From the NCBI RefSeq assembly GCF_048403405.1, contig NZ_CP183129.1: a stretch of 64,000 nt of DNA; one strand, written 5' to 3'. Shown here one piece after another: positions 3,619 through 49,030 of the stretch (the stretch's first letter is position 1; each line of letters opens with the position of its first letter). The DNA comes from Escherichia coli. GTDB lineage: Bacteria; Pseudomonadota; Gammaproteobacteria; Enterobacterales; Enterobacteriaceae. Made by a program: the position numbers and the translations under genes. The notes beneath the pieces are model-generated. The model was not told the origin of the DNA, searched no databases, and saw nothing but the letters and a program-made list of their open reading frames with translations.

Positions 3619-4239
3619 TTAGAGGATTTCCAGCAGTTCGACTTCAAACACCAGGGTGCTGAACGGAGGGATGGATGCGCCTGCGCCGCGCTCGCCATAT
3701 GCCAGTTCCTGCGGGATAGTCAGTTCCCATTTAGAACCTACCGGCATCAGAGTCAGTGCTTCAATCCAGCCAGGGATCACGCCATTAACCGGGAATTCAG
3801 CGGGTTCACCACGAGCAACGGAGCTGTCAAACACGGTGCCGTCGATCAGTTTACCGGTGTAATGAACACGAACGCGGTCGGTACGTGCCGGAATTGCGCC
3901 TTCACCCTGGTTGATCACGCGGAATTGCAGGCCAGATTCGGTGCTATTCACACCTTCTTTTTTGGCGTTTTCTTCCAGGTATTTCACACCTTCAGCAGCC
4001 ATCGCCTGGAAACGCTGACGACGAACGGCATCGGCGCGTTCGTGGATTTCACGCAGCGCGCGGTGCACCACATCAACCGGAACAGCCGGATGTTTGCCTT
4101 CCAGCGCATCGGCAATGCCTGCAACCAGTGCTTCTGGCAGCAGCCCTTCCAGGCCAGATTCACTCAGTTGTTGCCCTACCTGCAAACCAATGCCGTAGCT
4201 TGCTTGCGCTTCGATGGTGTCAAAAGTTGGGGTGGTCAT
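3619..4239 (-). CDS. fklB: FKBP-type peptidyl-prolyl cis-trans isomerase FklB
   Basis: Track ORF 3619..4398 extends upstream; internal ATG at 4239 gives MTTPTFD..., 206 aa, matching the FklB N-terminus; FKBP domain in the C-terminal half. Confidence 0.88.
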
Positions 4240-4456
4240 CGTATTTCCTTTCTTAGGGTATAAAGTAGCGGGCAGCATATCAGCCACACTTCTTTGGGTA
4301 AAACTTTGTCGCGGGAATGATGACAAATCCCGGGGAAAAAGAAACAATAGCAATATCCCGTATGAATATAATAAAGGCGGGTTTACCACGGACATCATAG
4401 CGTTAGCTTATTCATAGGCTATGATTGAGGAACAAGACGCGGAGCAGGAGGAAACC

Positions 4457-5095
4457 ATGCCCGGGCGCTTTGAACTAAAACCAACCCTGGAGAAAGTCTG
4501 GCACGCGCCAGACAATTTTCGCTTCATGGACCCGCTGCCGCCGATGCATCGTCGGGGGATCATTATTGCCGCCATTGTATTGGTGGTCGGATTTCTGCTT
4601 CCATCTGATGATACGCCCAACGCGCCGGTGGTGACGCGTGAAGCGCAGTTAGATATTCAGTCGCAATCACAACCACCGACAGAAGAACAGCTGCGGGCGC
4701 AATTAGTCACGCCACAAAATGATCCTGATCAGGTGGCTCCGGTCGCTCCAGAACCAATACAGGAAGGCCAGCCAGAAGAGCAGCCGCAACCCCCCCAAAC
4801 GCAACCATTCCAGCCAGATAGCGGAATTGATAATCAATGGCGCTCTTACCGTGTCGAACCCGGTAAAACGATGGCACAGCTGTTCCGCGACCACGGGCTG
4901 CCCGCTACCGATGTCTATGCAATGGCGCAGGTAGAAGGCGCGGGTAAGCCGCTGAGTAATTTGCAAAACGGGCAGATGGTGAAAATCCGCCAGAACGCCA
5001 GCGGCGTGGTGACGGGCTTAACCATTGATACGGGGAATAATCAACAGGTCTTGTTTACCCGCCAGCCGGATGGCAGTTTTATTCGTGCGCGGTAG
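4457..5095 (+). CDS. ytfB: Cell-division-associated OapA/LysM-domain protein YtfB
   Basis: Track ORF starts 4421; ATG at 4457 is preceded by AGGAGGA (4446..4452); 212 aa with one TM helix, a Pro/Gln-rich linker and a C-terminal OapA-like domain. Confidence 0.85.
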
Positions 5096-6568: not shown

Positions 6569-6596
6569 AAAACGCCGACCAGTGGTCGGCGTTTTT
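6569..6596. terminator. Bidirectional intrinsic terminator between convergent yjfZ and rplI
   Basis: AAAACGCCGACC-AGTG-GTCGGCGTTTTT: 10-12 bp GC stem flanked by an A-run and a T-run, so it serves both strands. Confidence 0.65.
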
Positions 6597-23119: not shown

Positions 23120-23151
23120 AAAAAAAAACCATCCAAATCTGGATGGTTTTT
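23120..23151 (-). terminator. Strong intrinsic terminator after rlmB (A9-CCATCCA-AATC-TGGATGG-T5; symmetric, bidirectional in form)
   Basis: 7-bp stem flanked by a 9-nt A-run and a T-run; read on the minus strand it is hairpin plus U9, directly downstream of the rlmB stop. Confidence 0.65.
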
Positions 23152-43835: not shown

Positions 43836-46800
43836 GTGCGCCTGATTATCACTTTTCTGATGGCCTGGTGCCTCAGTTGGGGGGCGAACGCCGCGACGGC
43901 CCCCGATAGCAAACAAATCTCACAAGAACTGGAGCAGGCAAAAGCGGCGAAACCCGCGCAACCGGAAGTCGTAGAGGCGCTCCAGTCTGCCTTAAATGCG
44001 CTTGAGGAACGGAAAGGTTCCCTTGAGCGCATCAAGCAATATCAAGAAGTCATTGATAATTATCCGAAACTCTCCGCTACTCTGCGCGCGCAATTAAACA
44101 ACATGCGTGACGAGCCGCGCAGCGTGTCACCGGGGATGTCTACCGACGCGCTGAATCAGGAAATTCTCCAGGTCAGCAGCCAGTTGCTGGATAAAAGCCG
44201 TCAGGCCCAGCAAGAGCAGGAACGCGCCCGCGAGATTGCCGATTCGCTGAATCAACTGCCGCAACAGCAAACCGATGCCCGCCGTCAGTTAAATGAAATC
44301 GAGCGCCGCCTGGGGACGCTTACCGGCAATTCCCCGCTCAATCAGGCACAAAATTTCGCGTTGCAGTCTGACTCCGCACGTCTGAAAGCGCTCGTCGATG
44401 AACTGGAACTGGCGCAGCTGTCCGCCAATAACCGCCAGGAATTAGCGCGCTTGCGCTCAGAGCTGGCGGAAAAAGAGAGCCAGCAACTGGATGCGTATTT
44501 GCAGGCCTTACGTAATCAGTTGAATAGCCAACGTCAGCTTGAGGCGGAGCGGGCGCTGGAAAGTACCGAATTACTGGCAGAAAACAGTGCCGATTTGCCG
44601 AAAGATATCGTCGCGCAATTCAAAATTAACCGCGAACTATCGGCAGCGCTGAATCAACAGGCGCAGCGGATGGATCTCGTTGCCTCGCAACAGCGTCAGG
44701 CTGCCAGCCAGACGTTACAGGTCCGGCAGGCGTTGAATACGCTGCGTGAACAGTCGCAATGGCTGGGATCGTCCAATCTGCTCGGCGAAGCGTTGCGGGC
44801 GCAGGTGGCACGGCTGCCGGAAATGCCAAAACCACAACAGCTTGATACCGAAATGGCGCAGTTGCGTGTGCAACGGTTACGCTATGAGGATCTGCTTAAT
44901 AAACAGCCGCAGCTAAGGCAAATTCATCAGGCCGACGGTCAGCCGCTGACCGCCGAGCAAAACCGTATTCTGGAAGCACAGCTACGCACTCAGCGTGAGT
45001 TGCTGAACTCATTGTTGCAGGGTGGAGACACGCTACTACTGGAACTGACCAAGCTGAAAGTCTCCAACGGACAACTGGAGGATGCGCTGAAAGAGGTGAA
45101 TGAAGCGACGCACCGCTATCTGTTCTGGACCTCTGACGTGCGCCCGATGACCATCGCCTGGCCGCTGGAAATCGCCCAGGATCTGCGTCGTCTCATTTCG
45201 CTGGACACCTTCAGTCAGTTGGGCAAAGCCAGTGTGATGATGCTGACCAGTAAAGAGACAATTTTACCGCTGTTTGGCGCGTTGATTCTGGTCGGTTGCA
45301 GTATTTACTCACGCCGCTATTTCACCCGTTTTCTTGAACGTTCGGCGGCGAAAGTCGGCAAAGTGACTCAGGATCACTTCTGGCTGACGTTACGCACTCT
45401 TTTCTGGTCGATTCTCGTCGCGTCACCGCTACCGGTGCTGTGGATGACGCTGGGTTACGGCTTGCGCGAGGCGTGGCCTTATCCGCTGGCGGTAGCGATT
45501 GGTGATGGCGTAACAGCCACCGTACCGCTGCTATGGGTAGTGATGATTTGCGCTACCTTTGCCCGCCCGAACGGCTTATTTATCGCTCATTTTGGCTGGC
45601 CGCGCGAACGGGTTTCCCGTGGGATGCGCTACTACCTGATGAGCATTGGGCTTATCGTGCCGCTGATTATGGCGCTGATGATGTTCGATAATCTCGACGA
45701 CCGCGAGTTTTCCGGTTCGCTGGGACGGCTTTGCTTTATCCTCATTTGCGGTGCGCTGGCGGTGGTCACTCTCAGTCTGAAAAAGGCCGGGATCCCGCTG
45801 TATCTCAACAAAGAAGGCAGCGGTGACAACATTACCAACCATATGCTGTGGAACATGATGATTGGCGCACCGCTGGTTGCCATTCTGGCGTCGGCGGTGG
45901 GTTATCTGGCAACGGCGCAGGCACTGTTAGCGAGGCTTGAAACCTCGGTTGCCATCTGGTTCCTGCTACTAGTGGTTTATCACGTTATCCGCCGCTGGAT
46001 GCTGATCCAGCGCCGCAGGCTGGCGTTTGACCGGGCGAAGCATCGCCGGGCAGAGATGTTAGCGCAACGTGCGCGTGGCGAAGAGGAAGCTCATCATCAC
46101 AGTAGCCCGGAAGGGGCAATTGAAGTCGATGAAAGCGAAGTCGATCTCGATGCCATCAGTGCGCAATCCTTGCGGCTGGTGCGCTCAATTTTGATGTTGA
46201 TCGCCCTGCTTTCGGTCATTGTGCTGTGGTCAGAAATCCATTCCGCTTTCGGCTTCCTCGAAAATATTTCGCTGTGGGATGTCACCTCCACGGTACAGGG
46301 CGTAGAAAGTCTGGAGCCGATTACCCTCGGTGCGGTGCTGATTGCCATTCTGGTGTTTATCATCACCACGCAGCTGGTGCGCAACCTGCCCGCGCTGCTG
46401 GAACTGGCGATTTTGCAGCACCTGGATTTAACGCCGGGTACGGGCTACGCCATCACCACCATCACCAAATATCTGCTGATGCTGATTGGCGGGCTGGTCG
46501 GCTTCTCAATGATTGGTATTGAGTGGTCGAAATTGCAGTGGCTGGTTGCCGCGCTCGGTGTTGGTCTCGGTTTTGGTTTGCAGGAAATTTTCGCCAACTT
46601 TATCTCTGGCCTGATCATCCTGTTCGAAAAACCGATTCGCATTGGCGATACGGTAACGATCCGCGATCTTACTGGTAGCGTGACGAAAATTAACACCCGT
46701 GCCACCACCATCAGCGACTGGGACCGTAAAGAGATAATCGTGCCGAACAAGGCATTTATTACCGAGCAGTTTATCAACTGGTCGCTCTCTGACTCGGTCA

Positions 46801-47159
46801 CGCGCGTGGTGTTGACGATTCCGGCCCCTGCCGATGCCAACAGTGAAGAAGTGACGGAAATCCTGCTCACCGCAGCGCGTCGCTGCTCGCTGGTGATCGA
46901 CAACCCGGCACCGGAAGTCTTCCTGGTGGATCTGCAACAGGGGATTCAGATTTTCGAGCTGCGTATTTACGCCGCTGAGATGGGTCACCGTATGCCGCTA
47001 CGCCATGAGATCCACCAGCTAATTCTGGCAGGCTTCCACGCCCACGGTATCGATATGCCATTCCCGCCCTTCCAGATGCGTCTGGAAAGCCTCAACGGTA
47101 AACAAACGGGGAGAACGCTGACGTCTGCGGGCAAAGGTCGTCAGGCGGGAAGTTTGTAA
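43836..47159 (+). CDS. mscM: Miniconductance mechanosensitive channel MscM (YjeP)
   Basis: ORF 43836..47159 (GTG start), 1107 aa; signal peptide, long coiled-coil periplasmic region, multi-TM region and C-terminal MscS-like domain. Confidence 0.9.
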   Translation: MRLIITFLMAWCLSWGANAATAPDSKQISQELEQAKAAKPAQPEVVEALQSALNALEERKGSLERIKQYQEVIDNYPKLSATLRAQLNNMRDEPRSVSPGMSTDALNQEILQVSSQLLDKSRQAQQEQERAREIADSLNQLPQQQTDARRQLNEIERRLGTLTGNSPLNQAQNFALQSDSARLKALVDELELAQLSANNRQELARLRSELAEKESQQLDAYLQALRNQLNSQRQLEAERALESTELLAENSADLPKDIVAQFKINRELSAALNQQAQRMDLVASQQRQAASQTLQVRQALNTLREQSQWLGSSNLLGEALRAQVARLPEMPKPQQLDTEMAQLRVQRLRYEDLLNKQPQLRQIHQADGQPLTAEQNRILEAQLRTQRELLNSLLQGGDTLLLELTKLKVSNGQLEDALKEVNEATHRYLFWTSDVRPMTIAWPLEIAQDLRRLISLDTFSQLGKASVMMLTSKETILPLFGALILVGCSIYSRRYFTRFLERSAAKVGKVTQDHFWLTLRTLFWSILVASPLPVLWMTLGYGLREAWPYPLAVAIGDGVTATVPLLWVVMICATFARPNGLFIAHFGWPRERVSRGMRYYLMSIGLIVPLIMALMMFDNLDDREFSGSLGRLCFILICGALAVVTLSLKKAGIPLYLNKEGSGDNITNHMLWNMMIGAPLVAILASAVGYLATAQALLARLETSVAIWFLLLVVYHVIRRWMLIQRRRLAFDRAKHRRAEMLAQRARGEEEAHHHSSPEGAIEVDESEVDLDAISAQSLRLVRSILMLIALLSVIVLWSEIHSAFGFLENISLWDVTSTVQGVESLEPITLGAVLIAILVFIITTQLVRNLPALLELAILQHLDLTPGTGYAITTITKYLLMLIGGLVGFSMIGIEWSKLQWLVAALGVGLGFGLQEIFANFISGLIILFEKPIRIGDTVTIRDLTGSVTKINTRATTISDWDRKEIIVPNKAFITEQFINWSLSDSVTRVVLTIPAPADANSEEVTEILLTAARRCSLVIDNPAPEVFLVDLQQGIQIFELRIYAAEMGHRMPLRHEIHQLILAGFHAHGIDMPFPPFQMRLESLNGKQTGRTLTSAGKGRQAGSL

Positions 47160-47265
47160 TGCATGAAGCTGCCAAATGATGTCAACGTGGCTCATTTAGC
47201 AGCTTAACATCATCTTCAGTTATCACCGGCCCTGGAGAGTATCATCCATACGCATTACTTCCTGA

Positions 47266-47294
47266 CAACTCATCGTCGGAGAGACGATGAGTTG
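47266..47294. other. 12-bp perfect hairpin in the mscM / yjeM convergent junction (CAACTCATCGTC-GGAGA-GACGATGAGTTG)
   Basis: Perfect inverted repeat read directly; no flanking T or A run, so not a canonical intrinsic terminator. Confidence 0.5.
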
Positions 47295-47309
47295 CAGGAT
47301 TTCATAGGA

Positions 47310-48812
47310 TCAGTCGAGAGCTAACTCAGGTTTATTCGCCATGCGACTGCAATAGTTCTGGTAAATCGCCATCGCTAACAGCGAGAAGAAGACAGGGCCG
47401 CCAATCATCCACAATGTGCTGTCCCAGTCTCCGGCTTCAACCACAGGCTGAATAATGGTGAAGACGTTCGCAAATGTCACCACCAGAACGACAACCACCG
47501 TCGCAATCATTGCCGACATACGCGTTTTGAAAATCACAAACGGTCTGTCGAGATCCTGACGTGCTTTAAAGAATGGGAAAGCCAGCGCGAGGAACAGGTA
47601 AGGAAGCGTCATAGACACGTTCGCCATCAGCGTCAGCTTGTTAAAGAACGCCGATGCGGTACCGCCACCAAACGAAACCAGCAGGATGAAGACAGTAACC
47701 AACCCGCACTGCATCCACATGGCGATAGACGGCATCCCCATCGCATTCAGGCGCGTCATCGGTTCCGGCCACAACGCTTTCGGCGTCCCCTGGATGATGG
47801 CTTTCAGCGGTGAATAGCAAAGCGTAAAGAACGCACCGGTATAAGCGAGGAACATCGAAAGTCCGGTAATACGCGCAAACCATACGCCCAGCGACAATGA
47901 CGCTTCTGGTGACAAATGCAGTGCGTTACCCAGCGTCACCCCGAGGCTCTTCATCAGCACATAGGTAATATTGCCGAGGTTAACGGAACCATTACTTAAT
48001 ACCTGCTGCCAGTTTGTGCTGACGCCCCATAAAAATATTGCCAGCGAATAACCGATTGAAATAACAATAGCGGCAAAAACAATACCTTTGGCAAAGTTCT
48101 TTTCTGGATTTTCCGTTTTATCGACCAGACCACCAACCGCTTCAATTCCGCCATAGGCAAAAATAGCAAATACCACAAACGATAGCATTGCCAGACCGGA
48201 CTGATAACCTGGGTTCGGTGATGCAAGGAAATTAATATCCTGCGCGAAATGCCCACCATTTAATAACAAAATAGTAATGCTTACTAACAGCAATACTAAA
48301 TTCAGACACATTACTGCAATACCGCCCACCGCAGTAATGCGGGCAATTTTATTAATCCCCTTTGAAGCAACGACGGTGACCAGAATCATCCATGCCACTG
48401 CCAGCAGACCAACCACCTGCGTAGGCTCCAGTCCGGTAATACGCCAGTGCTGGGTCATGTCGCTACCATAGAGGAATGTTGAGAACGGTACCCAAACTTT
48501 CGCGGAGGTACTCACCATCCAGATGATATAAGAGGAAAACCACATAAATGTACCAATGAAGGCAAAACGTGGTCCGACACTATTATTCATCCAGGAATAG
48601 ATACCACCTTCTTCTTTGCGATAAGCAGCTCCCATTTCAGCCATCATTAAGGCGAATGGAATAAAGAATAACAATGCAGAAAATATATAAAAGGGAATCG
48701 CACTATAACCCATTAAGTAATAAGCCGATGGGCTATTGGCAAATCCAAATACGGAAGTAAAGATCATCAATATGAGTCCTATCAGACTCATCTTTTTTAT
48801 CGTGTGAGGCAT
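47310..48812 (-). CDS. yjeM: APC-superfamily amino-acid transporter YjeM
   Basis: Track ORF to 48854; ATG at 48812 gives MPHTIKKMSLIGLILM..., 500 aa polytopic. Confidence 0.85.
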   Translation of the reverse strand: MPHTIKKMSLIGLILMIFTSVFGFANSPSAYYLMGYSAIPFYIFSALLFFIPFALMMAEMGAAYRKEEGGIYSWMNNSVGPRFAFIGTFMWFSSYIIWMVSTSAKVWVPFSTFLYGSDMTQHWRITGLEPTQVVGLLAVAWMILVTVVASKGINKIARITAVGGIAVMCLNLVLLLVSITILLLNGGHFAQDINFLASPNPGYQSGLAMLSFVVFAIFAYGGIEAVGGLVDKTENPEKNFAKGIVFAAIVISIGYSLAIFLWGVSTNWQQVLSNGSVNLGNITYVLMKSLGVTLGNALHLSPEASLSLGVWFARITGLSMFLAYTGAFFTLCYSPLKAIIQGTPKALWPEPMTRLNAMGMPSIAMWMQCGLVTVFILLVSFGGGTASAFFNKLTLMANVSMTLPYLFLALAFPFFKARQDLDRPFVIFKTRMSAMIATVVVVLVVTFANVFTIIQPVVEAGDWDSTLWMIGGPVFFSLLAMAIYQNYCSRMANKPELALD

Positions 48813-49030
48813 GAAACCATCCTTCATTTCAGCGCGTGTATAAAACGCGCCCACTGAACTGCACTGCCCAACATTGAGCGGGCAGCGTAAAAACCAATAC
48901 AGAATTGATACCTGGATGATATCAAATATCCAGTCTTAAATTGTGGCCTTTAGCGGAAAAATGAAAACATATGCTACAGAATGGCGCTTATCACGCCATT
49001 CTTCGCGGTTAATTCAGTAATTTTTCAGAA

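Follow-up and report, generated by a model that had tools for sequence, protein, structure and literature searches.

Rho-dependent transcripts of Escherichia coli have their steady-state ends just past stable stem-loops without U-rich tails. Such stem-loops shield the RNA against PNPase and RNase II, and the rut sites lie downstream of them (Dar & Sorek, Nucleic Acids Res 2018, PMC6061677). The stretch of DNA analyzed here, 64 kb of an E. coli genome and called the window below, has an unannotated, structurally conserved hairpin between the convergent genes mscM and yjeM which is probably a member of this known class of 3′ stem-loops. With the described examples it shares a stable stem-loop past a stop codon, the absence of a U-rich tail and, in K-12, a Rho region further downstream on the same strand. 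It differs from them in that the RNA is G-rich directly after the stem and C-rich from about 55 nt on. We consider it rather probable that Rho terminates the yjeM transcript and that the hairpin, which has no U-tract, protects the resulting 3′ end, standing in a junction that was shortened by an old deletion of yjeN and yjeO.

Three other described systems come close to this locus. Canonical intrinsic terminators also combine a perfect stem of at least 12 bp, a short loop and a position at a gene end. Two further perfect 12-bp repeats of the window, at 6569-6595 (AAAACGCCGACC-AGT-GGTCGGCGTTTT) and at 23124-23151 (AAAAACCATCCA-AATC-TGGATGGTTTTT), are canonical bidirectional terminators of this kind, in which an A-run precedes the stem and a T-run follows; the hairpin between mscM and yjeM has neither. 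REP and BIME elements likewise set a palindrome between convergent genes, and some orthologous junctions of Citrobacter carry REP-like sequences. In contrast to these, the 12-bp hairpin is single-copy per genome and has no Rfam match; presumably it is also unlike the REP consensus. Finally, the junction as a whole is an ordinary gene-loss scar. As in other gene-loss scars of E. coli, there is a colinear frameshifted fragment between intact flanks, and intact alleles exist elsewhere, including in E. albertii. Nothing in it is unusual by that comparison, and the allele is very common (44%), being present in O157:H7, in the B/BL21 lineage and in ATCC 25922.

The two genes and the stem-loop between them are placed in the window as follows.

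43836..47159, plus strand: mscM coding sequence, 1107 aa in the ORF list, stop TAA at 47157-47159.
47310..48854, minus strand: yjeM ORF, convergent with mscM, stop TGA at 47312-47310.
47261..47298, minus strand: yjeM 3′ stem-loop, with a core of 12 bp, a loop of 5 nt and a CCUG/CAGG extension that includes one bulge.

The gene names come from the annotation of NZ_CP128875.1, which is 100% identical to the window over 1.1 kb. Since the annotated yjeM CDS in that sequence has 1503 nt, the upstream GTG start of the yjeM ORF in the window is probably too early. According to the ORF coordinates, exactly 150 nt (47160-47309) separate the two stop codons, and the ORF scan found no ORF of at least 20 aa lying wholly within this gap. 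In both respects an earlier note on this DNA, which had described a 150-nt junction free of small ORFs, was right. One ATG ORF of 58 aa on the minus strand (47195..47019) has its start in the loop of a second hairpin, close to mscM, and extends antisense across the 3′ end of that gene; we judged it to be spurious.

The inverted repeat itself reads CAACTCATCGTC-GGAGA-GACGATGAGTTG, with arms at 47266-77 and 47283-94 that are complementary at 12 of 12 positions and enclose a 5-nt loop. The stem-loop begins about 14 nt past the yjeM stop. When folded as RNA, the 12-bp hairpin gives -27.8 kcal/mol on the minus strand (z = -6.7) and -28.7 kcal/mol on the plus strand (z = -6.5). A perfect repeat of this size is far beyond chance: the 64-kb window contains three with at least 12 bp and a loop of 3-10 nt, against a mean of 0.03 in 30 dinucleotide shuffles. 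No U-tract follows the stem: its tail reads GUCAGGAAGUAAUG on the minus strand, and on the plus strand it reads CAGGAUUUCAUAGG. The earlier note had thus correctly described a perfect 12-bp inverted repeat without U-tracts, as all 12 positions are complementary and neither strand has a T-run. A consensus terminator scan of 46800-47700 returned 0 sites, and two promoter-like matches were no more than the chance expectation. The Rfam 15 covariance models had 0 matches at E <= 10 within 46500-48000. The literature on yjeM, yjeN and yjeO is silent about the junction and the hairpin.

How is this junction distributed within the species? Our allele census covered 5,426 complete E. coli genomes. The compact 150-nt junction was present at a coverage of at least 80% in 2,394 of them (44%), and the yjeO-yjeN block of K-12, at the same coverage, in 2,152 (40%); a partial block was found in 878 (16%), mostly as yjeO-only alleles such as that of strain 042. 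Carriers of the compact junction include O157:H7, ATCC 25922 and, from the B lineage, C43(DE3), BL21 and ATCC 11303. Across the 150 nt all 2,394 compact alleles have an identity of at least about 91%, as a single origin would allow. A rare compact variant in HS-02 (L085) has 91.5% identity to the junction of the window. Its hairpin has lost 2 nt from the 3′ arm, and there are also a 4-nt deletion, single-base deletions and, close to mscM, an insertion of 13 nt. Either the allele is decaying or the assembly contains indel errors.

In K-12 the distance between the stop codons of mscM and yjeM is 705 nt. This space holds yjeO and yjeN, which code for 104 aa each, overlap by 4 nt and lie on the strand of yjeM. 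The earlier note had placed both genes here in K-12, and they are there; its figure of about 0.9 kb for the insert was too large for a 705-nt gap. It had also supposed an indel hotspot, and the existence of at least four allele classes agrees with this: the compact allele, yjeN+yjeO (of which there are two sequence types), the yjeO-only allele, and an IS630-containing larger island. The yjeO-only alleles arose by an independent deletion, in which the 5′ part of yjeN was lost in the other sequence type and its 3′ end was kept. The larger island is carried by a few strains; that of VCSW5 (L090, 1-2366) consists of a second YjeO-family gene, a gene for a 237-aa protein (WP_001061059.1), a frameshifted IS630 transposase and then yjeO. 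An IS3 element is also found in the island between mscM and yjeM of E. coli SX48 (L087).

If the cassette of K-12 is missing from so many strains, was it gained by some lineages or lost from others? The features that bear on this question lie between the stem-loop and mscM.

47250..47265, minus strand: former yjeN leader with a Shine-Dalgarno-like AGGAAG, from the alignment to intact alleles.
47210..47249, minus strand: yjeN pseudogene remnant, ATG at 47249-47247, about 13 codons from which 1 nt is deleted.
47206..47212: approximate deletion junction, at which the homology changes from yjeN (up to codon ~13) to the yjeO-distal hairpin; compared with the E. albertii / L005 type, about 0.6 kb is missing.
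47166..47205: mscM-proximal hairpin from the inverted-repeat search, arms 47166-79 and 47192-205, loop of 12 nt.

On the minus strand the order is yjeM stop, 14-nt spacer, hairpin, AGGAAG, and then ATG GAT GAT ACT CTC CAG GGC CGG TGA. Read directly, the frameshifted yjeN remnant gives MDDTLQGR-stop (47249..47223). From the hairpin to GAAGATGA (47265-47210) the sequence is colinear with the leader, the ATG and codons 1 to ~13 of yjeN in four intact alleles, namely those of K-12, the H14 type, the GTDB E. coli representative (L005) and E. albertii. The local alignment scores were 20-24, against 10 ± 1.6 (maximum 16) for shuffled sequences; the comparison was also made with MAFFT. To the rest of yjeN and to yjeO we found no homology in the junction.

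The other end of the junction compares with E. albertii in a similar way. The mscM-proximal hairpin has arms of 14 nt that are 93% complementary, with a C·A mismatch on the plus strand or a U·G wobble on the minus strand, and its folding energies are -20.6 kcal/mol (plus) and -23.1 kcal/mol (minus), with z about -4. The flanks of its stem, TGCRTGAAGCTGCC...GGCAGCTT, agree with those of the hairpin that separates mscM from yjeO in E. albertii (L006). Over the 46 nt on the mscM side, TGCGTGAAGCTGCC...GGCAGCTTC of E. albertii stands against TGCATGAAGCTGCC...GCAGCTT of the window; the local alignment score is 15, compared with 9.1 ± 1.3 under the null, and the end position is colinear. This hairpin is the distal one of the former yjeN-yjeO unit and has been retained. 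The deletion junction between the two homologies would have an approximate position rather than a base-precise one.

As an outgroup we used E. albertii, with E. fergusonii and the cryptic clades outside the sample. Between mscM and yjeM it has yjeN (85% aa identity) and yjeO (80%), and because it carries both genes the compact allele is the derived one. An ancestral empty site, which the earlier note had offered as a possibility, is contradicted by these genes of E. albertii, by the yjeN remnant and by the E. albertii-like hairpin next to mscM. A single old deletion of ~0.6 kb would have taken yjeO together with yjeN beyond its first ~13 codons. The source haplotype was probably a type A yjeM-yjeN-yjeO arrangement (type A being one of two sequence types of the stem-loop compared below), which E. 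albertii and some E. coli have kept whole, and both hairpins that flanked the cassette would have survived the event.

It is useful to compare the stem-loop after yjeM across these alleles. It is found in the same place in the compact, full and yjeO-only alleles, at about 14 nt from yjeM in type A and at 7-9 nt in type B, and the same hairpin is present in the yjeN+yjeO carriers E. albertii and the GTDB E. coli representative. The 12-bp hairpin is older than the deletion and did not arise from it. With up to three mismatches allowed, the window contains a single match; among the 5,426 complete E. coli genomes the median number of hairpin places per genome is 1 and the highest is 1-2. A repeated or mobile element was considered as well and is ruled out by the single copy per genome.

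These observations bear on the suggestion that the hairpin is a feature of the DNA with no role in RNA, such as a recombination scar, a palindromic protein site or the end of a mobile element. The perfect palindrome of the window and its location at a hotspot of gene gain and loss would agree with it, as would a weak sigma-70-like match that overlaps the hairpin edge on the minus strand. A scar had also been proposed in the earlier note, together with the expectation that copies of the repeat flank yjeN and yjeO. Neither idea survived, since the hairpin occupies the same site in intact alleles, is older than the deletion and lies about 55-60 nt from its junction, and since there is one copy per genome and the hairpin on the other side of the cassette differs in sequence. 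The single copy in the window and in each genome and the lack of an Rfam match also speak against a DNA-level feature, and most alleles are imperfect as DNA and fully paired as minus-strand RNA. We regard a purely DNA-level role as highly improbable.

Two types of the stem-loop can be distinguished. Type A (window, O157:H7, H14 type, E. albertii) is CAACUCAUCGUC-UCUCC-GRCGAUGAGUUG, and type B (K-12, strain 042, VCSW5) is UGCCCUAUCGUC-loop-GACGAUAGGGCG. The type B loops vary (TACCT, TGTCT, TGCCT, GGCCT); the type B stem is constant. In a pair count over seven distinct variants, read on the yjeM-sense strand, 84 of 84 cells were paired, while 20-58% of cells paired in the control in which the 3′ partner was slid by 1-3 columns. 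Among the 12 stem pairs, four are altered on both sides and two on one side. It seems that the base pairs of the hairpin have been maintained through two-sided changes; the variants fall into two deep lineages, A and B, so that these changes represent few independent events.

The perfect repeat of the window is itself a minority state. It is completed by T47276, a position which is C in O157:H7, the B strains, ATCC 25922, M9, 1428, JA0265, the intact type-A alleles and E. albertii; the exact 50-mer with the perfect repeat occurs in 318 of the 5,426 genomes. At this place the minus-strand RNA of the common allele forms a U·G pair, to which a C·A mismatch corresponds on the plus strand; six of the seven variants carry such a combination. 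The closing U·G of type B also pairs on the minus strand only, and the change from U·G to U-A in the window keeps the pair. This pattern points to an RNA element of the yjeM-sense (minus-strand) transcript. Given the asymmetry of the wobbles, a palindrome acting as DNA, an operator for a protein and an element shared by the two convergent mRNAs are all less likely. The earlier note had proposed a stabiliser of both convergent mRNAs; stabilization is still the best reading, and the part concerning both mRNAs has to be given up because the G·U pairs form only in the yjeM-sense RNA.

What could such an element do at the end of yjeM? In other genera, the yjeM orthologs all have a strong hairpin directly 3′ of the gene. 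These hairpins are unrelated in sequence, and several are canonical terminators with T-runs. Because the orthologs have a hairpin there, the position can be taken as that of a 3′-end element of yjeM. The Escherichia yjeM hairpins have no U-tract.

One explanation is that the hairpin works as a weak, non-canonical intrinsic terminator or attenuator, which in intact alleles set the ratio of yjeM to yjeNO. A stem-loop of this strength (-27.8 kcal/mol) 14 nt past the stop codon would suit such a role, and canonical T-run terminators occupy the orthologous positions in Citrobacter and related genera. In RegulonDB, yjeM and yjeNO are two operons, yet read-through between them has been seen in an assembled transcript (PMC4168707). 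The T-run that an intrinsic terminator needs does not follow the stem in type A or in type B, and half of the stem pairs only (6 of 12) are G-C. On balance this explanation is unlikely. The RNA-seq assembly joined yjeM, yjeN and yjeO of K-12 in one transcript (PMC4168707), because of which the hairpin may be intercistronic and not terminal in intact alleles.

We prefer the reading of a protective stem-loop behind which Rho terminates. Without a U-tract, the hairpin itself is most likely no terminator. RNA polymerase would probably pass it and go on through the leader of the dead yjeN and, antisense, into the 3′ end of mscM, and Rho would probably terminate in the untranslated remnant or in the mscM-antisense RNA. 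Exonucleases working from 3′ to 5′ would then trim the transcript back to the hairpin, so that the yjeM mRNA would have a defined and protected 3′ end. We infer both the Rho termination in the window allele and the exonuclease trimming with its effect on stability.

Published data on K-12 touch the first of these steps. A bicyclomycin-sensitive Rho termination region has been reported at 4386122 (+), which is the yjeM/N/O-sense strand (PMC7815308, supplementary file 2). This position is 45 nt inside the mscM 3′ end and corresponds to about 47114 (minus strand) of the window. As the K-12 region is antisense to the mscM 3′ end, yjeM/N/O-sense transcription invades mscM there. A composition scan gave a candidate in the homologous stretch of the window.

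47075..47212, minus strand: candidate Rho-utilisation region with C > G, C/G up to 1.87, presumably transcribed antisense into the mscM 3′ end.

The ~80 nt directly past the hairpin on the minus strand are G-rich in the same scan (C/G 0.5-0.8) and do not fit a rut site that would follow the stem at once. For K-12, the curated Term-seq table (Adams et al. 2021, PMC7815308) has no 3′ end at yjeM, yjeN or yjeO, either by name or by coordinate. This may reflect low expression, and it gives the model no positive support either way. The operon-decay supplements of Dar & Sorek 2018 have no entry for the yjeM/yjeN/yjeO locus. Among the compact alleles one variant, HS-02, counts against the model by the 2-nt deletion in the 3′ arm of its hairpin.

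The hairpin is about 20 nt upstream of the yjeN start, a location that suggests another function. It could be a former regulatory or processing element of yjeN-yjeO, acting by occlusion of the ribosome-binding site or as an RNase III site, and in the compact allele it would then be a functionless relic that has not yet decayed. In the window the CCUG/CAGG extension overlaps the start of the AGGAAG Shine-Dalgarno sequence, and the yjeN-yjeO unit appears in a sigma-E regulon table, with a 2.6-fold induction for one gene and none for the other (PMC2731931). Other observations fit this explanation less well. In K-12 there are 8 nt between the stem and the Shine-Dalgarno sequence, which is therefore left free; the stem is intact in the yjeO-only alleles, where yjeN is gone; and in the lineage of the window the change from U·G to U-A tightened the stem after yjeN had been lost. 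We estimate the probability of this explanation as low, and a protective 3′ stem-loop of yjeM remains our preferred reading.

The sequence types A and B also differ in the adjacent coding sequence. The last 37 nt of yjeM (47310-47346; 12 codons and the stop) have 57% identity to K-12 (L001, 1465-1501), and the adjacent 740 nt of yjeM have 98% identity between the window and K-12. Types A and B belong to deeply diverged haplotypes, and the mosaic boundary within yjeM is sharp. At the protein level the tails, SRMANKPELALD and SRVAKNPQWAVE, are equal in length, and the K-12 tail resembles that of Citrobacter. In C43(DE3) (L092) the MscM accession is that of K-12 (WP_001236847.1) and the YjeM accession is that of O157:H7 (WP_001300174.1); this mixture of accessions implies a recombination breakpoint at or near the junction.

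Rearrangements at yjeM have been described in another context. In amoxicillin evolution experiments, ampC amplicons ended in yjeM more often than in any other gene (38%), and no fixed hotspot sequence was reported (PMC12625342). What these reports describe is the body of the K-12 gene rather than the hairpin.

It remains to consider the lost genes and their place in related genera. YjeN had no match in Pfam, NCBIfam, PADLOC, PHROG or PDB, and the only match of YjeO in the same family searches was DUF2645. In some Citrobacter, mscM and yjeM are directly adjacent. Other Citrobacter and relatives such as Pseudocitrobacter have between them a gene for a 237-aa protein and a DUF2645 (yjeO) homolog. 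In Enterobacter and Kosakonia the DUF2645 homolog is found beside mscM, mostly with the 237-aa gene, and there is no yjeM nearby.

The 237-aa proteins of Citrobacter, Enterobacter, Kosakonia and Pseudocitrobacter have 60-70% identity to the one encoded in the VCSW5 island, and the gene is followed by the DUF2645/YjeO homolog. We recorded the pair in seven loci (L009, L010, L013, L017, L019, L021 and L027, at about 3650-4800). The sole match of the 237-aa protein was phrog_11932, with no sequence match in Pfam or PDB. Its AlphaFold model was poor (pLDDT 59), and Foldseek against PDB gave nothing below E = 1. The protein may carry lytic-transglycosylase-like motifs. BLASTP showed no relation between it and YjeN, and YjeN seems to take its place in Escherichia.

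The variety of these neighbors admits a broader explanation. Cassettes of two genes may be exchanged at the site beside mscM, composed of a variable upstream gene (yjeN or a phrog_11932-type 237-aa gene) together with a yjeO for a DUF2645 membrane protein and serving perhaps as toxin/immunity or envelope-stress modules. The stem-loop would be a conserved cis-acting RNA, and not a generic 3′ hairpin, by which the yjeM transcript is insulated or processed from the cassette that happens to be there. To this broader explanation we give a very small chance. If it were true, the compact allele would be a natural cassette-less control in 44% of E. coli.

For the biology of E. coli the finding matters little beyond housekeeping, and its first result is a correction in the direction of the event, which is a loss of genes and not an empty ancestral site. 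In the sample of complete E. coli genomes, both of the uncharacterized genes yjeN and yjeO are dispensable in roughly 44%, and yjeN is so in roughly 60%. The yjeM stem-loop may offer a clean test case for the protection of mRNA 3′ ends after Rho termination, and natural variants of the stem (perfect, wobble and fully covaried) exist in common laboratory and pathogenic strains.
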